Shown in pieces: positions 926-13,553 of a stretch of DNA of 22,563 bases. The DNA comes from a virus (Duplodnaviria; Heunggongvirae; Uroviricota; Caudoviricetes): IMG/VR virus record IMGVR_UViG_2563366825_000028, one strand, 5' to 3'. The notes beneath the pieces are model-generated. The model made no database searches, was not told the DNA's origin, and saw nothing but the letters and a program-made list of their open reading frames with translations. The position numbers and the translations under genes were made by a program. Positions within the stretch are counted from its first letter, which is position 1; each line of letters opens with the position of its first letter.

Positions 926-2863
926 TCAGCCGCCGGACGCAGTTCCGTAGTTCACACCGGTGATCACCGCCACCGCCGCGGTACGGCGACGACGCCAGTT
1001 GATCCAGCGCTCCGCACGGATGGCCACGCTGCCTGTCTGGAACATGGAAACCAGCTCCACCGGGGACGGCGTGGTACTGTCGCCGGTCGGCTCAGACTGC
1101 ATTTCCAGTGATGCCTCGCGGGACATATCCACTGCCACGCCGCCGTCATCCGCCAGATAAATATCCGGGGCATTCACCAGCACCAGCTGGTCACCCACGT
1201 ACTGGGAGACAATCACCGGCAGCCCCTGGAAGGAGCCACCCAGCAGGGTCATGTCCGGGTATTCCTTCTGACCCAGCGCATTTTTACGCATGGACAGTGC
1301 CAGGGCATTGGTGCTGGACATCAGCCAGACCGCACCGGTGGGCTGCAGGTTTGCTGCCACAAACTGTCCAAACGCAGCCTCTGCATCCGCATCCGGGTTA
1401 CCGGTTGATGCCGTGCCCTTCACATCATGGGTGATGGACGCCGGGGAGACATCTGCCACTGCGGCTTTTTTCGGGTCCACAAAGTCTGTATCCAGACGCG
1501 CCACCACCGCTTCCGCCAGCGCATTACGGACCAGTGCATCAGCAGCCGGACTGGAAAAACGGATCAATTCTTCCGTCAGTACCGCAATGGCCGACACTTT
1601 CGCATGACTGAAGGTGATGGATTCAAAATCAAACTTCGTCAGGGGTTTTGCCTTACCCTCACCCACCCAGCCGGCAGCACCGCCGGACACCTGGGCGTGC
1701 ACACGGATATTGAACGGCACCTGACGAAGTGCAGGGATCCCGCCCTGACCAAATCGCCCGATAATGGTCTGCGGACGCAGGTAATCAATAAAGTCCTGTG
1801 CGTATTCCTGATATTCAGACAGGCTGCCTGCCCACTGCGGATCCGTGGTGGTCCCCGCGCCCACTGCCGATTTCAGGACATGATGCAGACGACTGTCATC
1901 CGGATACTGACGACGGGCCACTTCCAGGGCTTCAGATCGGACGCCTTTAGCCGCAGCCAGCGATTTGGCAAAGCGGGCGAAGCCAATCCCCTTATCCAGT
2001 TTCTGCTCCACACGGATCACCGGCGCAGAAGCCACCGCGGCCACATTCCCGTTACCGGCCTGTTTCACCGGCTGCGCCGTGGCGGCCTTACCGGCTTCCA
2101 GTTCACGCAGGCGCTTCAGGTGCGCATCCACCTGACGGATTTCCGCTGCGGTGTTGTCGTAATGCTCTTCCTCCTCCACATCCAGCGTGCGCCCTTCCTC
2201 TGCGGCTTTGGTCATGACCTCCTCAAGGGAGGCTGCCAGCGCTGCACGCTTGTTTTCAAAACTTTTAATCTGTTCGCCAATATTCATTATGGTCTTTTCC
2301 TTATGAAAAACGGTTGTTGACTGTGCCGCAGCGCCGGCAGAAGATGCGATTTTCACCACCGGTTTCCGGTTGCCGGACGCGGCAGAAAACGGGCGGTCGT
2401 AAGATTTAATGGTCCGGATGGTGCATTCCGCATTCGCGGGCACGGTGACGGCAGACACCTCCATCAGTTCCCAGCGCATAAAATGCAGTCCGCCTCCGTC
2501 CAGAAAGGTGTATTCATGGGGACGGAAGCCCACGGACAGCCCCCTGACCAGCCCGGTCTTAATGGCCGCCCAGACCTCATCCAGCCGGGCAGCCAGTTGC
2601 GACGGCATATCCGGTACGGGCTTCACCAGTGTTGCCGTGATTTCCAGCCCTTCGCTGACCCGGCGCACCGTACACTGCCCCACCGGGCGGGAATGGTCAT
2701 GCTGCCAGAGAAACGGGATCGCACTGCCAAACTCCGCGCCCTCCGGCTCCAGGATGTCACCATCCCGATCCGGAGAAGGCGTTGACGCAATCCCGGTGAT
2801 CACCCGTTCATCCTCACTGAAGGATTTCACCGTCAGCAGGGAACAGGCCCGTTTAAGAGTCAC
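926..2863 (-). CDS. Fused prohead protease / scaffold / HK97-fold major capsid protein (645 aa)
   Basis: The N-terminal ~160 aa look like an HK97-family prohead protease (FLWQHDHSRPVG, GLSVGF, ELMEVSAVTVPAN). The middle is a charged coiled-coil-like linker (EEEEHYDNTAAEIRQVDAHLKRLRELEAG). The C-terminus looks like an HK97-fold major capsid protein (GWVGEGKAKPLTKFDFESITFSHAKVSAIAVLTEELIRFS ... RAERWINWRRR). GTG start at 2863 with AGGAGG 5 nt upstream. Confidence 0.85.
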   Translation of the reverse strand: MTLKRACSLLTVKSFSEDERVITGIASTPSPDRDGDILEPEGAEFGSAIPFLWQHDHSRPVGQCTVRRVSEGLEITATLVKPVPDMPSQLAARLDEVWAAIKTGLVRGLSVGFRPHEYTFLDGGGLHFMRWELMEVSAVTVPANAECTIRTIKSYDRPFSAASGNRKPVVKIASSAGAAAQSTTVFHKEKTIMNIGEQIKSFENKRAALAASLEEVMTKAAEEGRTLDVEEEEHYDNTAAEIRQVDAHLKRLRELEAGKAATAQPVKQAGNGNVAAVASAPVIRVEQKLDKGIGFARFAKSLAAAKGVRSEALEVARRQYPDDSRLHHVLKSAVGAGTTTDPQWAGSLSEYQEYAQDFIDYLRPQTIIGRFGQGGIPALRQVPFNIRVHAQVSGGAAGWVGEGKAKPLTKFDFESITFSHAKVSAIAVLTEELIRFSSPAADALVRNALAEAVVARLDTDFVDPKKAAVADVSPASITHDVKGTASTGNPDADAEAAFGQFVAANLQPTGAVWLMSSTNALALSMRKNALGQKEYPDMTLLGGSFQGLPVIVSQYVGDQLVLVNAPDIYLADDGGVAVDMSREASLEMQSEPTGDSTTPSPVELVSMFQTGSVAIRAERWINWRRRRTAAVAVITGVNYGTASGG

Positions 2864-2926: not shown

Positions 2927-4588
2927 TTATATGAAAAAAACCGCATATTCTTTCTTTTTCGGTTCCGGGTTAAGGGACATCAGGGAGACCGCATTGAACA
3001 GCGCCATCAGCGGGTCAATTTTTCCCCGTCCACTGGCCTGTTTGGTGATAAGAATGGCGTTACCTTTAGGCTCCACCCGGGCATTGCCGACACACCAGGC
3101 CATCAGGGGCTGGTCACCATGCACCAGCACCCCTTCAGCCAGTTTGCGCTCGGTGGTTTTAATGGCCCCGCCCAGTTTCCAGCCCTGGCTTATCCCCACC
3201 ACAATTCCGTCGGGGATCCCGGCTTCCGCCAGTGAATCCAGAATCTGCCCCACCCCTGACGGGTCAATACCGATATGGTCCAGTAACTCAGCCTCATGAA
3301 TGCGACGCACATATTCCGCCACTTCCGCCGTGTCATCCCCGATACGCCGGACAATGGTCATATCTCCACAGGCAACAAGATCCTGAAACCGGGACGCCTC
3401 GCTCTTCCGTCGGACCACCGCGGTTTCATGCGCCCAGGCATGGCCCCAGCCCAGCCATTCGCGGGTCTCCCGGTCACGCCCAATCACATACATCCCCAGC
3501 AGATCATCCAGCCCTCCGCCGTCAATCCCCACCGTCACCACATCAGCACGACGCAGGATATCGTCCAGGCTGATACAACGGCCCTGCTCTTCCCAGAAAT
3601 CAGCCCCCGCCCAGCGGTCAGAGCGCAGGGCAAGACCAATTTCCACATTGGCGTGTTTTGACATGAACCCCCGGAATGTCTCTTCACCGGCTTCCCGGGC
3701 TTTACGGTACTCCCGGTACAGAAAGGCCTCATCCACTGAATAGCCGAGATTCGGATTGACCATGGCGAGGTTTTCCATCAGCAGGTGAGCCCCGCTTTCC
3801 ACCATTTCAGGAGGGTGTTCAAATATCACCGGCAGAAAGTGCGGATCATGAATTTTGCCGTCGCGCACATCCCGGGCGTACTGCAGTTTCTGTCTGAACA
3901 CCCCGGCGGGCGGTTCATTCGACTGGGTGGTCGTATACACCACAAACCCTTCCGGGCGGGAGGCAAGGCCGCCGATGGCTTCACGTAACATGTCCTCCGC
4001 CTTGTACTGCTTGCCAAACAGCCACAACTCATCAATCAGCGTACCCACGGACTTGATACCGGACACCGTATTCGGATCGGCTGCCACCACCTTCAGGGTG
4101 GTGTCTGTCACCCTGTGGGTGATGGTCCGGATATGGGTCTGTACCTGGCAGAGGTCATCCAGATCATCGTCACGTCGTACCATATCCCGGGCAGGGTTGA
4201 AGGCGTTGGCCGCCACCTCCACAGTCGGGGCCAGAATCGTGTAACCCGCCGCCTGCCGCCAGTTCAGTAACAGCGCCGTCATCATGATCCCCGCGGCCAG
4301 CGTGGACTTCGAGTTTTTCTTGGGGATAAGGATAAAAACTTCCTTGATATGGCGTACACCGGTCTGCGCATCGTAGGAGCCAAACAGGGCCGCCACCAGG
4401 TCAAACACCCACGGTGCACAGGACTCCCCGAACGTAGGGCTACCAGGTGCATCCACAATCCGCAGTTGTTTAAAAATCGCCAGGGCATGTGCGGCCTCGT
4501 CCGGATAAATCGGATCCGGAATAATCGACAGCCCCTTTTTCAGGCGCTCAGCCCAGTCCGGGCAGGCTGTGCTCCATACAGGTATCAT
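2927..4588 (-). CDS. Terminase large subunit (Terminase_1-type ATPase/nuclease)
   Basis: 553 aa. Walker-A-like segment ILIPKKNSKSTLAAGIMMTALLL and C-terminal nuclease-domain motifs (VTVGIDGGG.DD, KIDPLMALFNAVSLM). The ATG at 4588 overlaps the terS stop (ATGA coupling). Confidence 0.9.
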   Translation of the reverse strand: MIPVWSTACPDWAERLKKGLSIIPDPIYPDEAAHALAIFKQLRIVDAPGSPTFGESCAPWVFDLVAALFGSYDAQTGVRHIKEVFILIPKKNSKSTLAAGIMMTALLLNWRQAAGYTILAPTVEVAANAFNPARDMVRRDDDLDDLCQVQTHIRTITHRVTDTTLKVVAADPNTVSGIKSVGTLIDELWLFGKQYKAEDMLREAIGGLASRPEGFVVYTTTQSNEPPAGVFRQKLQYARDVRDGKIHDPHFLPVIFEHPPEMVESGAHLLMENLAMVNPNLGYSVDEAFLYREYRKAREAGEETFRGFMSKHANVEIGLALRSDRWAGADFWEEQGRCISLDDILRRADVVTVGIDGGGLDDLLGMYVIGRDRETREWLGWGHAWAHETAVVRRKSEASRFQDLVACGDMTIVRRIGDDTAEVAEYVRRIHEAELLDHIGIDPSGVGQILDSLAEAGIPDGIVVGISQGWKLGGAIKTTERKLAEGVLVHGDQPLMAWCVGNARVEPKGNAILITKQASGRGKIDPLMALFNAVSLMSLNPEPKKKEYAVFFI

Positions 4589-5148
4589 CCGTTGCCCTCA
4601 TTATCGTTATTCACCACCAGTCGGGGTGGCGGTGGCACCGCAAAACGGTTAGCCGCTTTTTTCGCGGCATCACCTTTTGCCGATTTTTTCCCGGTATCCC
4701 CTTTTTTATGGTGCGTGAACTGCGCCAGACGCCAGGCCGCATCCAGTGCCAGTTTCGGATCAATGCAGAGGTTTTCCACCAGGATCCGCCCCATGGCTTT
4801 CACCGGATCGGGAAGACCATCCTCCATATATTCAATACCAGGAGACATCACCGCGGACGGTGGCATCTCCGGATTGTTTTCGTCCGGCTGTGGTATTGCA
4901 GCCGCCTCACGGCGACGGGGTTTATCCTCCTGCTCTGATTTTTTCTGCCGGTAAACAGGAACCTCATCCACCTCCACCGTTTCGCACTGTTTACGGGCTA
5001 TAAACGCGAGCACCTCCGGATCTTTTGCCAGCTGCGAGCCTTTAACCCTGGCGGTCTTCGCCGAATAACCGGCGGCAATGGCTGACGCTGTTTTGTTTTT
5101 CCCGGACATGAGCGCCAGCGCAAATTTTCGTTTTTGCGTTGTCAGCAC
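4585..5148 (-). CDS. Terminase small subunit (Terminase_2 / P27-type)
   Basis: N-terminus LTTQKRKFALALMSGKNKTASAIAAGYSAKTARVKGSQLAKDPEV fits the HTH signature of Terminase_2 small subunits. GTG start with GGAGGAGG upstream; the stop overlaps the terL start. Confidence 0.75.
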   Translation of the reverse strand: MLTTQKRKFALALMSGKNKTASAIAAGYSAKTARVKGSQLAKDPEVLAFIARKQCETVEVDEVPVYRQKKSEQEDKPRRREAAAIPQPDENNPEMPPSAVMSPGIEYMEDGLPDPVKAMGRILVENLCIDPKLALDAAWRLAQFTHHKKGDTGKKSAKGDAAKKAANRFAVPPPPRLVVNNDNEGNG

Positions 5149-5222: not shown

Positions 5223-5346
5223 ATGTTAACTGCTGCCTGGTTAACATTTGCTGAAAAAGCCAGTTAACATTTTTTCCGCACAACAAACTGAATAATAAAG
5301 ATAAAAACCGCAAAAATGCCCGGGCAGCCAGTTAACATGTTAACTG
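5223..5346. repeat. Cluster of five GTTAAC-centred motifs, including the perfect 18-bp palindrome CAGTTAACATGTTAACTG (5329-5346); candidate cos / terminase-recognition region
   Basis: Copies are ATGTTAACTG (5223-5232), GGTTAACAT (5239-5247), CAGTTAACAT (5261-5270) and the palindrome at 5329-5346. They lie in the 289-bp gap between the HNH stop and the terS start, where HK97-like cos phages carry cos. Confidence 0.6.
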
Positions 5347-5437: not shown

Positions 5438-5803
5438 TCACAGTCCGATGATATCGTCTGCCCTGCCACGACCTCCGGACACTTCCGGCAACGTCGGGTC
5501 CGGCATACCACTCGCCGCTTCACTGGCTGACTTCTGGCGATGACATTCAGTACAGAGCGTCCAGAGATTCGTCTCCTCATTACCACCACCGAACTGAAGT
5601 GCAATTCGGTGATCGAGTTCACTGTCACAGAGGTCAACCACACGCCCACAGAGACAGCACTGCCCGGCGTCCCTCAGCCAGATATGACGCTTGAGGGAAA
5701 CACGTGCACTGCCACTGACACGACGCTGTTCCCCCTTCAGAATATTCACCCGTCGGGTATTCAGTGTTTTGATTCTGCTCTGGAGTGTACGAAGCTCAGC
5801 CAT
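5438..5803 (-). CDS. HNH homing-type endonuclease (terminase-associated)
   Basis: 121 aa with the HNH motif CCLCGRVVDLCDSELDHRIALQFGGGNEETNLWTLCTECH. ATG at 5803 with GGGGA RBS. Sits directly upstream of terS, as HNH proteins do in cos-packaging phages. Confidence 0.85.
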   Translation of the reverse strand: MAELRTLQSRIKTLNTRRVNILKGEQRRVSGSARVSLKRHIWLRDAGQCCLCGRVVDLCDSELDHRIALQFGGGNEETNLWTLCTECHRQKSASEAASGMPDPTLPEVSGGRGRADDIIGL

Positions 5804-5844: not shown

Positions 5845-6045
5845 ATGTCATCGAAAAACCGGACCCGCAGAACCACAACCCGCAATATCCGTTTCCCCAA
5901 TCACATGATTGAACAGATCAACATCGCCCTTGAGCATAAAGGATCCGGTAACTTTTCAGCGTGGGTTATTGAAGCCTGCAGGAGAAGGCTGGCAACAGAT
6001 GCAACGCATCTGCGCCCGGCCAGCATGAAAAATAACGAGAAATGA
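5845..6045 (+). CDS. Small YlcI/YnfO-like (DUF3950) prophage protein, possible ribbon-helix-helix fold
   Basis: 66 aa, MSSKNRTRRTTTRNIRFPNHMIEQINIALEHKGSGNFSAWVIEACRRRL..., with AAAGGAAA RBS before ATG 5845. It resembles the small YlcI/YnfO proteins of E. coli cryptic prophages (from memory). The track ORF 5785..6045 starts further upstream in frame, but the RBS supports 5845. Confidence 0.6.
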   Translation: MSSKNRTRRTTTRNIRFPNHMIEQINIALEHKGSGNFSAWVIEACRRRLATDATHLRPASMKNNEK

Positions 6046-6176: not shown

Positions 6177-6509
6177 TCAGGGTGCAGAAGGACTAAAGAT
6201 AAACGTTTTCTTCACGCCTTTACACGGCCTGTCCTTCTCAAATCGCCATTTTGCCATCGCCTTTACAACCTGCTCATCAAACAAATGGTGCGGCTCTGAA
6301 CGGATAAACTCAATTCGGGTGACAGTACCATCAGCACCAATATCAAACTTCACATCAACCCGTCCCTTTATATAATTTGCCGCTGCATAGGCCGGATATT
6401 GTGGTAATGCCTTCACCAACTGTCGGGGCATATCTGTTTTATGTTGCGTACAGCCCATAACCAGAGAAGACAACAAAATAATTAACGGAAGATTTCTTTT
6501 CATTTTCAT
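6177..6509 (-). CDS. Lipoprotein with TonB C-terminal-like domain (prophage accessory gene)
   Basis: Signal peptide plus lipobox (MKMKRNLPLIILLSSLVMGC), then PQYPAYAAANYIKGRVDVKFDIGADGTVTRIEFIRSEPHHLFDEQVVKAMAKWRFE, which fits the TonB_C signature (YP..A...G.V.V.F.....G.V.......S.....FD.....A...WRF). Start taken at ATG 6509; the track uses GTG 6518. Confidence 0.75.
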   Translation of the reverse strand: MKMKRNLPLIILLSSLVMGCTQHKTDMPRQLVKALPQYPAYAAANYIKGRVDVKFDIGADGTVTRIEFIRSEPHHLFDEQVVKAMAKWRFEKDRPCKGVKKTFIFSPSAP

Positions 6510-6523
6510 TCCCGGCACAGATA

Positions 6524-6540
6524 AGAATAAGTCTTATTCT
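6524..6540. promoter_or_regulatory. 17-bp palindrome AGAATAAG-T-CTTATTCT just upstream of the TonB-like gene (candidate operator, loosely Fur-box-like)
   Basis: Perfect inverted repeat about 17 nt upstream of the start codon. In context it reads GATAAGAATAAGTCTTATTC, which matches the Fur box GATAATGATAATCATTATC at 13 of 19 positions by my alignment. Confidence 0.35.
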
Positions 6541-6936
6541 AACAATGCCACCCTGTCGGTCATCAATCCTCTGCTTGATGGCAACGACAATTATCCGACT
6601 TAAATCACAAATCAGACACATAACAGGGCTTGCGAGGTAACACATCGTCCGGTTTCTTCCACCATCGCACCGGACGAGCGACCATGAGGGGACAACGCCG
6701 CGCGCCGTTAACGCGGTAAACCCCGGTGTGTATCGTTTTTGATTATCCCCGCACACTCGCGCAGAGGAGTCTCCCGGTCGGGCTGCGGTCATGGTTAATG
6801 CGGGAATACGGCGACGATACAGCGCATGATATGTCAGGCTTGAATACCTTTATCCGTTAAAAAGGATATCAGTTAAGTTATCCCGTGCAGGGTATAAGCC
6901 ATTATCAAGCCCACCAGTAGATGGGCTTTGTAATGG

Positions 6937-7194
6937 CTACTTCGCTTTTGCTTCCGCTCGCTTACACCGGCGCTTTTCTTTCTTCTCGGCTTTTGCCATG
7001 TCCATGAATGCCTGCATGATCGAGTTCCGCATCATGTAGCTGACAAAGTGATGATTGACACAGCCGTTGAGGCGCAACTGCTCGCCAAACTCATCCACCG
7101 AGGCCAATGCTTCCATCACGCCCTTCTCGCCTTTCATGAACGCTGAGAAGTCGCGCCCCGCTCTGGAGGCGCATTCAATGACACGATCACTCAT
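6937..7194 (-). CDS. Hypothetical protein (85 aa), translationally coupled to the KilA-N gene
   Basis: ATGA overlap with the upstream gene stop (7191-7194). Lys/Arg-rich C-terminal tail. No family recognised. Confidence 0.5.
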   Translation of the reverse strand: MSDRVIECASRAGRDFSAFMKGEKGVMEALASVDEFGEQLRLNGCVNHHFVSYMMRNSIMQAFMDMAKAEKKEKRRCKRAEAKAK

Positions 7195-7688
7195 CCCGGA
7201 AGCCCGGGGATTGTGATCTGCAACTGGTTAGCCAGGGAGTTAATCTCAGCGATCAAACCAGGTTTCGTGTAGCGCCATGCCGCAAGGCCTTGCCCGCAGA
7301 AGCTCGCCATATCTTTTTTCTGATCAAACTCATGACACTTCATATTGAGCTGCGCACTTAAGCTGTTGCGATGCTGGAGTTCTCCGGTGAAGTAGTCATC
7401 CAGGACTTTATAGGCTGCATATTTAAATCCGGGGTTTAGCCATGCTGCATAATCATAAGCAACAAACTTCCCGCCATATGTTCCACCGTGTACACCGCGC
7501 TCAGTAAAAACCACAGATTCGTGGTTTTTCTCCAGCTCGGCTAAGAACTCTTTGGTCTGCTTGTTTCGCAGGTAGTGGTACGGAGATTCAGATTCACTTT
7601 TACCACTGGCTTTCCACATATCAGTGAGGCAGATCATGCCATCTTCAGCGACACGGATTGGCTGATTGAAGAGGGTTAATGATTTCAT
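7191..7688 (-). CDS. KilA-N domain protein (antirepressor/Bro-N-like)
   Basis: MKSLTLFNQPIRVAEDGMICLTDMWKASGK... is typical of the KilA-N DNA-binding domain. ATG 7688 has AGGT 8 nt upstream; the track's GTG at 7757 is an in-frame alternative. Confidence 0.75.
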   Translation of the reverse strand: MKSLTLFNQPIRVAEDGMICLTDMWKASGKSESESPYHYLRNKQTKEFLAELEKNHESVVFTERGVHGGTYGGKFVAYDYAAWLNPGFKYAAYKVLDDYFTGELQHRNSLSAQLNMKCHEFDQKKDMASFCGQGLAAWRYTKPGLIAEINSLANQLQITIPGLPG

Positions 7689-7841
7689 GTCGTATACCTG
7701 TTCTTTGAAATGAACCTTTGCCGCATAGGAAACCAGCCCACCGAGGCTCGCCAGCACTAACTGGTATCCTCAAAGGCTCATTCCAAAGGGGCAGGCTCGG
7801 TGGTTATCATGCGCTGCGGTGCGCGGTGAAATTCAGATATG

Positions 7842-7867
7842 AAAAAGCCCACGCGTTTACGTGGGCT
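7842..7867 (-). terminator. Candidate rho-independent terminator (minus-strand sense)
   Basis: Stem AGCCCACG / CGTGGGCT with a 6-nt loop, followed on the minus strand by TTTTT (plus-strand A run 7842-7846). Confidence 0.5.
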
Positions 7868-8098
7868 GGTGTGCATGACGTCAGGACTAACCGATGAGTT
7901 TTAAATCAGCTTTTCGGTGTTTTTTCTGATCGGTATAAAAATTTTCATGTGGACCGATGCTAAGGAGGTAGAGCTCAAGTTTATCGTCAAGCCAGCTGTA
8001 ACCCAGAAGCACCAGTTGATTATTCAGCTGAAATTTATGCACACTGAACCGCCCCGGAAATCCTGGAGACTAAACTCCCTGAGAAAGAGGTAAACAGG

Positions 8099-8425
8099 AT
8101 GACTAAAAATACTCGTTTTTCCCCCGAAGTCCGTCAGCGGGCGATTCGTATGGTTCTGGAAAGTCAGGATGAATATGACTCACAGTGGGCGGCAATTTGT
8201 TCCATTGCCCCAAAGATTGGCTGTACGCCGGAGACTCTGCGTGTCTGGGTTCGCCAGCATGAGCGGGATACCGGGGGCGGTGATGGTGGGCTCACCAGCG
8301 CTGAACGTCAGCGTCTGAAAGAGCTGGAACGTGAAAATCGTGAACTGCGCCGCAGTAACGATATCCTTCGCCAGGCTTCCGCTTATTTTGCGAAGGCGGA
8401 GTTCGACCGCCTCTGGAAAAAATGA
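8099..8425 (+). CDS. IS3-family transposase OrfA (HTH / leucine-zipper part)
   Basis: 108 aa, [65 protein letters not shown], matching IS629/IS1203 OrfA as I recall it. The A6 run 8417-8422 at the orfA/orfB overlap is a possible -1 frameshift slippery site. Confidence 0.9.
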
Positions 8426-9312
8426 TGCCACTGCTGGATAAGCTGCGTGAGCAGTACGGGGTCGGACCGGTATGCAGCGAACTGCATATTGCCCCGTCAA
8501 CGTATTACCATTGTCAGCAACAGCGACATCATCCGGATAAACGCAGTGCCCGTGCGCAGCACGATGACTGGCTGAAGAGAGAGATACAGCGCGTATACGA
8601 TGAAAATCATCAGGTGTACGGTGTGCGTAAAGTCTGGCGTCAGTTGTTACGGGAAGGAATCAGGGTGGCCAGATGTACAGTGGCGCGCCTCATGGCGGTT
8701 ATGGGACTTGCCGGTGTTCTCCGGGGTAAAAAGGTCCGCACTACCGTCAGCCGGAAAACCGTTGCCACAGGTGACCGCGTAAACCGTCAGTTCGTGGCAG
8801 AACGTCCTGACCAGCTGTGGGTGGCTGATTTTACTTACGTCAGCACATGGCAGGGCTTCGTCTATGTGGCGTTTATCATTGATGTGTTTGCCGGATACAT
8901 CGTGGGGTGGCGGGTCTCATCGTCTATGGAAACGACATTCGTGCTGGATGCGCTGGAGCAGGCGTTGTGGGCCCGTCGTCCGTCTGGCACCATCCATCAC
9001 AGCGATAAAGGCTCTCAGTATGTGTCACTGGCCTATACGGAGCGACTAAAAGAAGTCGGATTACTGGCATCAACAGGGAGTACAGGCGACTCGTATGACA
9101 ACGCGATGGCTGAGAGCATCAATGGTCTTTACAAAGCGGAGGTAATACACCGTAAGAGCTGGAAAAACCGTGCAGAAGTGGAACTGGCCACACTAACGTG
9201 GGTGGACTGGTATAACAATCGACGATTGCTGGGAAGGCTGGGCCATACTCCTCCGGCAGAAGCAGAAAAAGCTTATTATGCTTCCATCGGAAACAATGAT
9301 CTGGCAGCCTGA
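8422..9312 (+). CDS. IS3-family transposase OrfB (DDE integrase-core catalytic domain)
   Basis: 296 aa with rve-type motifs ([59 protein letters not shown]). The ATG overlaps the orfA stop (ATGA). Confidence 0.9.
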
Positions 9313-9354
9313 GTTCACAGATAAAACACTCTCCAGGAAACCCGGGGCGGTTCA

Positions 9355-9509
9355 ATAAATCTCCAGTCCGTTCTGCTTATCTTCGATTCATGACAGCCAA
9401 TCATCTTTGCCAGACCGCGCTGGGTAAGCGTTGACAGGTTGATAAGTAAATCTGTTTCTGCGCGATCAACGTCGCGCTGTGATAGTTTGCTGTAACTTGT
9501 TTGTTCCAT
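9355..9509 (-). pseudogene. cII: cII-like transcriptional activator gene, truncated at its 3' end by the IS
   Basis: The first 52 codons (MEQTSYSKLSQRDVDRAETDLLINLSTLTQRGLAKMIGCHESKISRTDWRFI) run into the IS right end. The HTH segment with ...ESKISRTDWRFI parallels lambda CII ...KSQISRWKRDWIP (from memory). The rest of the track ORF 9315..9509 is read-through into IS sequence. Confidence 0.7.
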
Positions 9510-9594
9510 TTCTTAAGATTTCCAATAGTGAATAGTTAGTTGAAAGGTATGCGTGGAAACGCATATGGCCTTAGTTGGTCAGATATCTTGGGAC

Positions 9595-9640
9595 TCGCTT
9601 TTCAGCGACGTAGGACGAATGTCCGTTGTTACAAAGAGCG
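9595..9640 (-). promoter_or_regulatory. nutR-like N-utilisation site (boxA + boxB), between cro and cII
   Basis: Read on the minus strand: boxA CGCTCTTTGTAACAA (9640..9626), a 17-nt spacer, then boxB hairpin UCGCU-GAAA-AGCGA (9608..9595). The boxB core GCUGAAAAGC is shared with the nutL candidate. Confidence 0.5.
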
Positions 9641-9648
9641 GGTACTGC

Positions 9649-9867
9649 TTAGGCGGCTTTGTTACTGGATGGAGGGAAAACATCATCCAAAGAACATTGG
9701 CACCCTAACTTCCTGAGGCCTTCTACGATCTTTCGGCAATCGTTAAGTCTAGGAGTACGGATATTCAGCTCATAGTTGGCGATGCGGGATTGCCCCCAAC
9801 CAATTGCCGAAGCCAGTACAGCTTGCGAAACTCCGATTTTTTTTCGCTGCTGGGCAATTTTGTTCAT
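9649..9867 (-). CDS. cro: Cro-like repressor (XRE-family HTH), divergent from cI
   Basis: 72 aa from ATG 9867 (GGGAGA RBS), MNKIAQQRKKIGVSQAVLASAIGWGQSRIANYE... The track ORF starts at an upstream GTG inside the operator region. Confidence 0.8.
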   Translation of the reverse strand: MNKIAQQRKKIGVSQAVLASAIGWGQSRIANYELNIRTPRLNDCRKIVEGLRKLGCQCSLDDVFPPSSNKAA

Positions 9868-9897
9868 TGCGGTCTCCCTAGTATTAATCACACACCC

Positions 9898-9970
9898 ATT
9901 ACACACAATTTGTGATTAACAGTCAACCTCAATTCGTGTACAGAGTTCAATCACGTTGCGTGTTACATTT
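9898..9970. promoter_or_regulatory. OR region: divergent pR / pRM promoters with CACA-N3-TGTG operators
   Basis: pR on the minus strand: -35 TTGACT (plus 9926..9921), 17-bp spacer, -10 TGTAAT (plus 9903..9898), with operator CACAATTTGTG (9904-9914) inside the spacer. A second operator CACGTTGCGTG (9952-9962) sits 14 bp from the cI ATG. Candidate pRM -10 is TACATT (9964-9969), which would give a leaderless or near-leaderless cI mRNA. Confidence 0.65.
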
Positions 9971-9975
9971 AAAGG

Positions 9976-10623
9976 ATGAAAACGATGCATGAAATTATCG
10001 GGGAAAGGATCAAGTCCCTTAGAGAAGCTAAAGGACTTAGCCAGGCTCAATTGGCCAAGCTTTGCGGCTGGGCTGCGCCTTCACGCCTGGGGAACTACGA
10101 GTTAGGAACAAGAAAGGTTAGCGCGGATGACGCGCTGGTTCTTGGGGCGGCACTCGGCGTATCTCCGGCAAAAATAATGTTTGGCGAGGATTCAGACGCT
10201 GTATTTCGCCAATATGAGTACCCGTTATTTTCTTCAGTGCAGGCCGGGCCGTTTTCGGAGGTTGGAAGCTACACAGCAAGCGATGCAAAGGCATGGGTCC
10301 CAACGACCACAAAAGCCAGCGAAAAAGCTTTCTGGCTTGAGGTGAAAGGCCATTCTATGACTGCGCCACAGGGCGTAAGGCCGAGTTTTCCTGAGGGTAT
10401 GCTGATACTCGTTGATCCGGCCGAGCCGGTAGAGTCTGGGGATTTCTGCGTGGCTTCTGCAAATGGTGATTCAGAGGCAACGTTCAAGAAGTATGAGAAG
10501 GATGCAGGGGTTAGTTACTTGGTTCCATTGAATCCGGCATACAGAACCCTGGACTGCGATCACACATGCCGCATCATAGGCAAGGTAGTTAAGGCTCAGT
10601 GGCCTGAAGAGACGTTTGGATGA
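9976..10623 (+). CDS. cI: CI-like prophage repressor (HTH domain + LexA-like S24 autopeptidase domain)
   Basis: 215 aa with an N-terminal HTH ([24 protein letters not shown]). The C-terminal domain is very like lambda CI: cleavage-site region [10 protein letters not shown], catalytic Ser in [21 protein letters not shown], and the end ...[17 protein letters not shown] 9985 is an alternative start. Confidence 0.9.
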
Positions 10624-12503: not shown

Positions 12504-12564
12504 CTTGTGTTGGTCGCCAGAAAATGAAATTAGGCAGCAAACCACTTATTTGAGAGGAATTAAT

Positions 12565-13188
12565 ATGTCATCAATCCGCTTAACTACGAGAATGAAAGAG
12601 GAAATCGCTCGTAACGCTTTAATTAAGTCCGGGGTGTTCACTGAACTTGAAGAAGTAACAAAGTTAAAGAACCAGCTTGCACTTGACGCCAGAGTTATTG
12701 CGTTTGGCGGGAAAAAGAAAACCGAAGAAGTGGACCAGCTGGCATCAAAGTTAATGGCTGCAAGTGAGGAACTTCAAAAGCTGGGATGTTCATTTTACTC
12801 ATGCGATGTCAGTTCATGTTCGATTTATCTGACTGTATCTGGAAGAAGGGTTGGCTGGCATTCATACGGAAAAGACGGCAACGGTGAAGATATATTGCTC
12901 CCTACCCCCGACAAAGATAAATGCATGTTTGACGCAGAACACAAAATAACAAAAAGGTTTGATGAAATCTGCGCATTGCAACAAAAACTTGAAGCCAGGA
13001 AAAAGGATATAGAATCAAACGTATGGGCTGCTTTGAACTCAGTCACAACAGTTAAGCGACTTATTGAAGTTTGGCCTGAAAGCAAAGAGTTGCTACCAAA
13101 AGAAGCAGATAAAGCAAGTGCAGCACTTCCTGCTTTACGGGTAGAAGATTTGAATAAGATGATTGGACTTCCTTCCGAGGCCGCATAA
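12565..13188 (+). CDS. Hypothetical protein (207 aa), AT-rich accessory gene in the N-cIII interval
   Basis: ATG 12565 with GAGAGGAA RBS. No TM segments and no family recognised. Occupies the position where lambda carries ral/sieB-type accessory genes. Confidence 0.7.
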   Translation: MSSIRLTTRMKEEIARNALIKSGVFTELEEVTKLKNQLALDARVIAFGGKKKTEEVDQLASKLMAASEELQKLGCSFYSCDVSSCSIYLTVSGRRVGWHSYGKDGNGEDILLPTPDKDKCMFDAEHKITKRFDEICALQQKLEARKKDIESNVWAALNSVTTVKRLIEVWPESKELLPKEADKASAALPALRVEDLNKMIGLPSEAA

Positions 13189-13346: not shown

Positions 13347-13412
13347 ATATGCATACCAATAACGCTTCACTAGAGGCGTTTTCGTTATGTGTAAATAAAT
13401 AAGGAGCACACC

Positions 13413-13553
13413 ATGCAATATGCCATTGCAGGGTGGCCTGTTGCTGGCTGCCCTTCCGAATCTTTACTTGAACGAATCACCCGTAAATTACGTGACGGAT
13501 GGAAACGCCTTATCGACATACTTAATCAGCCAGGAGTTCCCAAAAATGGATAA
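13413..13553 (+). CDS. cIII: CIII-like FtsH (HflB) protease inhibitor (46 aa)
   Basis: AAGGAG RBS 6 nt upstream. [46 protein letters not shown] is essentially the lambda CIII sequence as I recall it, including the central amphipathic helix. Below the ORF-track size cut-off. Confidence 0.85.
   Translation: MQYAIAGWPVAGCPSESLLERITRKLRDGWKRLIDILNQPGVPKNG

Follow-up and report, generated by a model that had tools for sequence, protein, structure and literature searches.

We analysed a stretch of 22,563 nucleotides from a lambda-like prophage (IMG/VR record IMGVR_UViG_2563366825_000028, Caudoviricetes; hereafter the window, meaning the whole stretch) and focused on a small minus-strand gene that encodes a predicted lipoprotein whose mature part is a TonB C-terminal domain (CTD). 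The domain annotation itself is already in the databases, and the gene has appeared once in a list of expressed morons. What appears to be new is that the gene belongs to a conserved lipoprotein family rather than being a 'TonB fragment', that its product retains the seven functionally important residues of TonB, and that Fur boxes lie upstream of its chromosomal relatives. Our preferred reading, which we hold as tentative and somewhat short of probable, is that the gene is a lysogenic-conversion moron: an outer-membrane TonB-CTD lipoprotein that would compete with TonB, is expressed from an extended -10 promoter of its own and is possibly under Fur control.

Results

A predicted lipoprotein built on the TonB C-terminal domain

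Firstly, we defined the gene and its product. The minus-strand open reading frame (ORF) 6177..6518 is present in the window with three in-frame starts, GTG 6518, ATG 6509 and ATG 6503 (all features of the window are listed in Table 1). The last of these is most likely the true start, giving a product of 108 aa, since a GGGA lies 6 nt upstream of it, the RefSeq start of the JLK-2012 gene is the same and the homologues all begin there (MKR...); the Shine-Dalgarno counterpart in the phage-21 allele is AGGA, at an equal distance from the start. A first-pass annotation of the window had proposed a 110-aa lipoprotein. The ORF and the lipoprotein signal are borne out, the length is not, the start chosen there (ATG 6509) lying two codons upstream. 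The signal region MKRNLPLIILLSSLVMG, followed by C, combines a positively charged n-region, a hydrophobic h-region and a lipobox that satisfies [LVI][ASTVIM][GAS]C at every position, and a regular expression recovered the lipobox in all family loci analysed but one, the exception (L035) being a longer TonB-like protein. The residue after the lipidated Cys governs outer-membrane sorting under the Lol +2 rule; since this residue is Thr here, the lipoprotein is expected to be sorted to the outer membrane in a mature form of 91 aa.

Secondly, we established what the mature part resembles. It matches Pfam PF03544 (TonB_C; E=1.3e-14, 54.8 bits versus a cutoff of 24.6) and TIGR01352 (54.5 bits versus 27.1), and no Pfam family other than TonB_C and TonB_2 was found in the protein at E<=1. 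A phmmer search of the PDB returned TonB C-terminal domains only, the best being those of E. coli and Salmonella TonB (E = 4e-16 to 2.5e-15; top matches 8rd6, 1u07, 2gsk and 2grx), with a gapless alignment to TonB 153-231 (residues 28-106 in the 110-aa numbering) and an identity of ~39% over 79 residues to the E. coli domain. An AlphaFold2 (AF2) model built from 26 family sequences has a predicted local distance difference test score (pLDDT) >94 across the domain (residues 31-100) and low confidence for residues 1-23, in keeping with a signal peptide and tether. The modelled three-stranded sheet and two helices are superposable on solved TonB domains: Foldseek returned 1u07, 2gsk_B and 2grx_C with a root-mean-square deviation of 1.1-1.4 Å, a template modelling score TM(target) of 0.88-0.91 and a probability of 1.00, the TonB chains of the BtuB and FhuA complexes being matched at 1.1 Å with a TM(target) of 0.91. 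No viral structure with this fold was matched in BFVD at E<=0.001. The free-standing lipoprotein with a TonB CTD that the first-pass annotation had described is thus upheld by the profile and PDB searches, and the structure comparison that it had proposed as a check gave a TonB-CTD-like fold.

The window protein is nevertheless not a TonB proper: it reaches only 49-74 bits against the TonB equivalog models, whose cutoffs are 265-448, it is 108 aa long, and it has neither membrane anchor nor proline-rich spacer. Set beside E. coli TonB (P02929, CTD ~153-235; structures 1U07, 2GSK with BtuB and 2GRX with FhuA), it shares the order of helices and strands but lacks the N-terminal transmembrane anchor, the spacer and the coupling to ExbB/ExbD, and its N-terminus is instead a predicted cleavable lipoprotein signal peptide.

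Thirdly, we compared the residues on which TonB activity depends. When the entire TonB C-terminus was scanned with Cys and Ala substitutions and tested in colicin and ferrichrome-transport assays, only Y163, F180, G186, F202, W213, Y215 and F230 proved functionally important, and five of these seven are poorly conserved among TonBs generally while being conserved in enterics (PMC3005593). Six are identical in the window protein (Y163, F180, G186, F202, W213 and F230), and Y215 is conservatively replaced by F; in 108-aa numbering, Y36, W86 and F88 are the counterparts of Y163, W213 and Y215. Across 20 family members, the seven columns read Y/W, F/Y, G, F, W, F/Y and F/M/L. The YP motif of the TonB CTD is also kept. 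The last strand of the domain, which pairs with the TonB box in crystal complexes (PMC11658791), is likewise present in the window protein.

Most chromosomal relatives are preceded by Fur boxes

Relatives of 104-120 aa, at 35-50% identity, were recovered by profile searches and by scanning a single genome of each species; they come from Klebsiella, Raoultella, Pantoea, Erwinia, Sodalis, Pseudescherichia and one Salmonella. They are mostly chromosomal and outside prophages, the Klebsiella/Raoultella copy adjoining lacZ and lacI, and, judged by these sequences, the short TonB-CTD lipoprotein form is a small enterobacterial clade. The chromosomal proteins, unnamed beyond 'TonB family protein', are like that of the window in length, lipobox and domain, and their promoters are laid out alike, a palindrome preceding the start by 20-35 nt. 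They differ in not belonging to prophages and in that their palindrome is a canonical Fur box (14-17 of 19 positions), whereas that of the window is degenerate (13/19).

We compared the upstream regions by start-codon anchoring, using as Fur consensus the 19-bp GATAATGATAATCATTATC and the 7-1-7 form TGATAATnATTATCA. A Fur box matching at 14-17/19 positions was located 28-54 nt upstream of the start in 16 of the 23 chromosomal relatives (loci L008-L013 and L016-L036), in Klebsiella, Raoultella, Pantoea, Erwinia and Sodalis, and at most of these loci it ranks first among the sites of the fetched 5-10 kb stretch. The Klebsiella box, TTGATAATTATTATCAA, has a perfect 7-1-7 Fur core; others are GATAATGATTCTCATTAAC in Sodalis, TATAATGATAATCTTTATC in a Pantoea genome and TGAGAATGATTCTCA in Pantoea SM3. 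This suggests that the TonB-CTD lipoprotein is an undescribed member of the Fur regulon in Klebsiella, Pantoea and Erwinia, and we read the family as having belonged ancestrally to this regulon.

Promoter and palindrome of the window allele

The window gene is preceded by a perfect palindrome, AGAATAAG-T-CTTATTCT (plus strand; AGAATAAG-N-CTTATTCT), which ends 14 nt before ATG 6509 and 20 nt before ATG 6503. Its 17 bp, with 8-nt arms around one central base, are exactly as first reported. Taken alone, the palindrome is within chance, the window containing 3 perfect palindromes with arms >=8 and spacer <=3 where 1.4 +/- 1.3 are expected. Its predicted folding as RNA is weak (-4.1 kcal/mol, z +0.45) and no terminator was detected close to the gene, so that an RNA hairpin or terminator at this position was rejected. 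The partial likeness to a Fur box that had also been claimed does exist (11/19 when read symmetrically, 13/19 in the most favourable register), but it is at background level, since eight other sites of the window score as well (>=13/19). This weighs against iron control of the gene and makes the Fur claim weak when drawn from the window palindrome alone.

An extended -10 element, TGtTAGAAT, overlaps the left arm of the palindrome, and a weak -35-like hexamer, ATGACC, lies at a 16-nt spacer; transcription is predicted to start near position 6529. The motif TGTCAGAAT is kept in the phage-21-type allele, itself transcribed in lysogens (see below), and TGaTAGTAT or TGaTACTAT occupies the -10 position in Raoultella and Klebsiella. 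In an allele that is 89% identical to that of the window over the coding sequence, and 80% at third codon positions, the 43 nt running from the -10 through the palindrome and the leader are identical (43/43), whereas the spacer and -35 region differs at 8/13 positions. As it is not conserved, the -35-like hexamer is probably dispensable, the promoter being of the extended -10 type. By hand alignment, the window element is identical at 13/18 positions to the Fur-like element of Erwinia P6884, GAGAATAAAACTCATTAC, which occupies the same position. The phage-21-type allele retains only TGTCAGAATAAGAC, the -10 half, without the palindrome and with a Fur match of 10/19, which counts against the generality of Fur control.

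The Fur idea gains strength from the relatives' Fur boxes at the same position and from the conserved block of -10, palindrome and leader, and we read the window allele as carrying a diverged but constrained palindromic site. Iron or Fur control of this allele is possible; the putative site may bind Fur or another protein, and we hold binding of Fur to be somewhat less likely than not.

Distribution, selection and transcription in lysogens

Of 5426 complete E. coli genomes, 1618 (~30%) have the gene, and its database label in them is only 'TonB family protein'. The window allele occurs at >=95% identity in ~416 of these genomes and a second, phage-21-type allele, with ~74% nucleotide and 72% amino-acid identity to it, in ~1200. 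The window protein agrees at all 108 aa (100% identity) with those of four Shiga toxin (Stx) 1a-converting phages and of phage Lys8385Vzw, and is 99% identical to that of JLK-2012. The second allele is found in the classic lambdoid phage 21 (as 'TonB C-terminal domain protein'), ev017, Perceval and others, and a 40% identical copy in Klebsiella phage ST13-OXA48phi12.4. In every phage compared, the gene has the orientation of the late genes and fills the same slot, after the lysis cassette (and bor/iss if present) and before cos/HNH/terminase; the position among accessory genes near packaging noted in the first-pass annotation therefore recurs throughout these phage relatives. The ratio of non-synonymous to synonymous substitution rates (dN/dS) between the two E. 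coli alleles is 0.13, from which the gene is judged to be under purifying selection.

Published RNA-seq of LF82, an adherent-invasive E. coli (AIEC), counts the Perceval gene (LF82_160, 'TonB fragment') as one of the morons that lysogens express, 8-fold above the prophage background (PMC9928086). Its log expression is ~5-6.6 in all conditions, versus 2.3-3.5 for the flanking endolysin, Rz and terminase genes, and in the tabulated comparison it shows no significant change (log2 fold change 0.26), whereas bor is strongly induced (7.1; PMC9928086 supplement). These data concern the sister, phage-21-type allele, which lacks the palindrome. As this allele is transcribed in lysogens while the flanking late genes are silent, it has a promoter of its own and is transcribed independently of the late genes; the absence of a palindrome or Fur box fits its flat expression.

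We considered whether the gene could be a decaying, phage-acquired fragment of tonB and the palindrome a chance AT-rich repeat. Some records do say 'TonB fragment' or 'partial tonB-like', and the number of palindromes in the window and the Fur match of this one are both what chance or background would give. However, the dN/dS value, the intact frame, a lipobox conserved down to 35% identity, the presence of the gene in 30% of complete E. coli genomes and its transcription all argue otherwise, as does the complete identity of the 43-nt block beside a spacer in which 8 of 13 positions have changed. For the gene, decay is largely refuted, and we hold this explanation as a whole to be highly improbable.

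A role in the lysis machinery was suggested by a full-length match of the protein to PHROG 1267, 'Rz-like spanin' (E=7.7e-43), which would make it a spanin-like outer-membrane lipoprotein; the gene lies just 3' of lysis cassettes in the E. coli and Klebsiella phages and beside holins in an Erwinia prophage remnant. Yet phage 21 and JLK-2012 each possess a complete, separate i-spanin/o-spanin (Rz/Rz1) pair, and the protein has a globular TonB domain in the AF2 model, has no C-terminal transmembrane or hydrophobic segment, and is encoded neither within nor adjoining an i-spanin gene. Moreover, most relatives are chromosomal, preceded by a Fur box and far from lysis genes, and transcription takes place in lysogens in which Rz and endolysin are silent. 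A spanin identity was thus rejected on anatomy, context and expression pattern despite the PHROG match, and there is very little chance that it is correct. The label of phrog_1267 is probably wrong, since the members of the group are TonB-CTD lipoproteins, and the mislabel will spread into phage genome annotations.

Discussion

A candidate competitor of TonB at the outer membrane

We propose the following mechanism for the lysogenic-conversion moron. A TonB CTD without anchor or proline-rich spacer, fused to a lipoprotein signal, would be tethered at the periplasmic face (inner leaflet) of the outer membrane, where it could bind TonB boxes by beta-strand augmentation just under the transporter barrels. 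As the ExbB/ExbD-coupled anchor is absent, the lipoprotein would be unable to transmit energy and would compete with TonB, partly uncoupling TonB-dependent transporters. The lysogen's sensitivity to agents that depend on energised TonB (T1/phi80-type phages, colicins B, D, Ia and M and certain microcins, for example) would thereby be reduced, at the cost of lower siderophore uptake. Expression would come from the extended -10 promoter, overlapped by a palindrome that may descend from, or mimic, the Fur box of the relatives.

Superinfection exclusion by such a TonB decoy is plausible by analogy with two kinds of systems. On the one hand, engineered periplasmic TonB C-terminal fragments without the energy-coupling N-terminus are reportedly inhibitory, with a dominant-negative effect (work attributed to Howard et al. 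in 2001 and Koedding et al. in 2004), and those exported to the periplasm in the former study are said to have inhibited FhuA/FecA transport, phi80 infection and killing by colicin M. The engineered fragments are soluble, over-expressed laboratory constructs, whereas the window protein is shorter, natural and predicted to be tethered to the outer membrane. On the other hand, Cor (phi80, N15, HK022, mEp167) and Llp (T5) are, like the window gene, accessory genes. The site of action of Llp and prophage Cor is the periplasmic face of FhuA, a surface that TonB binding occludes (bioRxiv 10.64898/2026.03.26.714494). Cor and Llp share a small fold of their own, unrelated to the TonB CTD, and the predicted target of the window protein differs in being the TonB box in general and not a single transporter. 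If the proposal is true, it would thus define a generic exclusion route by a fold other than that of Cor/Llp. Phage 21 has a lambda-J-like central fibre, and cor is not among its annotated genes.

Bor/Iss (lambda, phage 21) offer a third comparison: like the window gene, they are lipoprotein morons located between Rz and cos/terminase and expressed in lysogens. They differ in family and fold, bor is transcribed against the late operon whereas the TonB-like gene is co-oriented with it, and bor responds strongly in LF82 (the log2 fold change of 7.1 given above) where the TonB-like gene stays flat.

Several observations weigh against the proposed competition with TonB. Firstly, the tether from the lipidated Cys to the start of the domain is short, only ~7 residues (TQHKTDM). 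Secondly, two positions of TonB are not conserved: in TonB, R166 contacts FhuA E56 and Q160 adjoins the TonB box, whereas the equivalent of R166 is always Y in the family and that of Q160 is variable, being L in the window protein. Thirdly, the relatives, predicted to be repressed by Fur, would be induced together with the very transporters that they would inhibit, which is odd for a pure inhibitor. Fourthly, the phage-21-type allele is transcribed at similar levels in all sampled conditions in a successful pathogen that relies on siderophores (LF82, see below). PADLOC had no matching defence family for the protein, and a search of the full-text literature found no functional study or paper on the TonB-CTD lipoprotein. 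The sole mention of the gene that we found is its listing as the expressed moron 'TonB fragment' in LF82, where the conditions sampled were LB, DMEM and macrophages (PMC9928086).

Two serious rivals to the proposed competition have to be considered. In the first, the lipoprotein is an auxiliary, positive factor of iron uptake, an outer-membrane-tethered TonB-like protein of the Fur regulon whose phage copy boosts iron acquisition by the lysogen. Canonical Fur boxes (14-17/19) 5' of 16/23 chromosomal members are the signature of iron-uptake genes, the residues that determine TonB activity are kept, and in phage 21 and Perceval the gene is accompanied by the Fe/Mn transporter genes sitABCD. Against this, a protein without a link to ExbB/ExbD cannot energise transport, soluble TonB C-terminal fragments reportedly inhibit rather than stimulate it, the chromosomal copies have no adjoining transporter or iron gene, and the Fur box is lost or degraded in the phage alleles; we judge this explanation unlikely. 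The sit genes can also be seen in another light: SitABCD is independent of TonB and could therefore offset the effect of a TonB-uncoupling protein. The arrangement in phage 21 (L040, OL657228.1 21967-25416; also L014) and in Perceval of LF82 comprises sitABCD, bor/iss and the TonB-CTD lipoprotein, a group of cargo genes related to iron and the envelope.

In the second rival, which we consider unlikely to a similar degree, the TonB-like fold has a different partner (peptidoglycan, an envelope protein, or only the TonB box of incoming colicins) and the gene is an envelope or virulence moron of the Bor/Iss kind. It shares its insertion slot with bor/iss, the equivalents of Q160 and R166 are unlike those of TonB, and the TonB_C fold turns up very widely and in many architectures, the domain counting 14,218 representative proteins, many of them multi-domain. 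The conserved residues, however, are exactly the seven needed for TonB activity, five of which are poorly conserved among TonBs generally, and the Fur boxes of the relatives point to iron.

The competition with TonB can be extended to a broader scenario, in which temperate phages of E. coli and Klebsiella recruited a Fur-regulon outer-membrane TonB-CTD lipoprotein as a TonB-box decoy that uncouples the transporters from TonB and so excludes TonB-dependent phages, colicins and microcins, the Fur-controlled relatives serving as a brake or modulator. We think this chain of events rather unlikely in its entirety. If true, Enterobacterales would possess, in these chromosomal relatives, a built-in and so far unrecognised means of restraining or modulating TonB-dependent transport.

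Siderophores, vitamin B12 and siderophore-antibiotic conjugates enter the cell through TonB-dependent transporters, as do many phages, colicins and microcins. A natural and common mimic of the TonB docking domain, expressed in lysogens, could shift the sensitivity to all such agents at once in the ~30% of complete E. coli genomes that have the gene. Among the carriers are Shiga-toxin phage lineages as well as strains of extraintestinal pathogenic E. coli (ExPEC) and AIEC that hold the gene with sitABCD and iss. The question bears on the host range of phages used in therapy, on the ecology of colicins and microcins and on how drugs of the cefiderocol type are taken up.

Prophage context and additional observations

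In the window, an insertion sequence (IS) of the IS3 family joins the minus-strand late region directly to the plus-strand CI-like repressor and pL operon (7757-9976), and the cro-to-Q-to-lysis segment (cro-O-P-Q-lysis) is missing. The prophage is consequently defective and a late promoter cannot drive the TonB-like gene here. No complete E. coli genome matched >=80% of the window, and the only RNA families found in it by Rfam are the IS3 ALIL pseudoknot and the lambda cIII thermoregulator.

Table 1. Features of the window and the basis on which they were called.
Feature	Position (nt)	Strand	Basis or remark
Major capsid gene	926-2863	-	
Large terminase gene	2927-4588	-	
Small terminase gene	4585-5148	-	
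HNH endonuclease gene	5438-5803	-	
YlcI/YnfO (DUF3950) gene	5845-6045	+	convergent
TonB-like gene: coding sequence of the TonB-CTD lipoprotein, 108 aa	6177-6503	-	ORF list; JLK-2012 gp70 RefSeq start agrees
TonB C-terminal domain, residues 26-104 (E. coli TonB 153-231)	6192-6428	-	Pfam/TIGRFAM, PDB alignment, AF2/Foldseek
Lipobox LVMGC (LVMG before C)	6450-6464	-	fits PROSITE-type rule
Signal peptide MKRNLPLIILLSSLVMG and lipidated Cys18 (predicted; 108-aa numbering)	6450-6503	-	read from sequence
Alternative starts of the TonB-like gene	ATG 6509 (110 aa); GTG 6518 (113 aa)	-	
Shine-Dalgarno-like GGGA, 6 nt 5' of ATG 6503	6510-6513	-	read from sequence
Perfect 8-1-8 palindrome	6524-6540	.	candidate operator, degenerate Fur-box homologue
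Extended -10 element TGtTAGAAT	6536-6544	-	promoter scan
Weak -35-like hexamer ATGACC	6558-6563	-	promoter scan
Gene for 85-aa protein of unknown function	6937-7194	-	
KilA-N protein gene	7191-7757	-	
IS3-family element	~8099-9312 (ORFs 8099-8425 and 8422-9312)		between late region and CI-like repressor
ALIL frameshift pseudoknot of the IS3 element	8380-8496		Rfam
CI-like repressor gene	9976-10623	+	
Nmad5 (nucleotide modification associated domain 5) protein gene	12505-13188	+	pL operon
Lambda cIII thermoregulator RNA (RF01804, 88.5 bits)	13400-13458	+	Rfam; just 3' of the Nmad5 gene
RecT and YqaJ exonuclease genes		+	after the IS3-family element
Integrase gene	21277 to window end	+	

A block of ~190 bp 5' of the TonB-like gene (~6640-6830, minus strand) is ~88% identical to the phage-21-type locus, versus 74% for the gene itself. 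It folds no better than shuffled sequences (z -0.16), and so gave no sign of a structured RNA in this block; a 117-aa ORF (6439-6792), which some records list as hypothetical, overlaps it. Elsewhere in the window, an 18-bp perfect palindrome, CAGTTAACATGTTAACTG, lies at 5329-5346 between the small terminase and HNH endonuclease genes, which is presumably where cos lies in HK97-like phages.

Among the relatives, the copy of Erwinia sp. P6884 (L011/L033) lies between the remnant of a Q-like antiterminator gene and two phage holin genes, and this locus is a second, independent association of the lipoprotein family with a phage lysis region. Genes for the type VI secretion system (T6SS) protein Hcp and for Ntox44 are also found near this copy.

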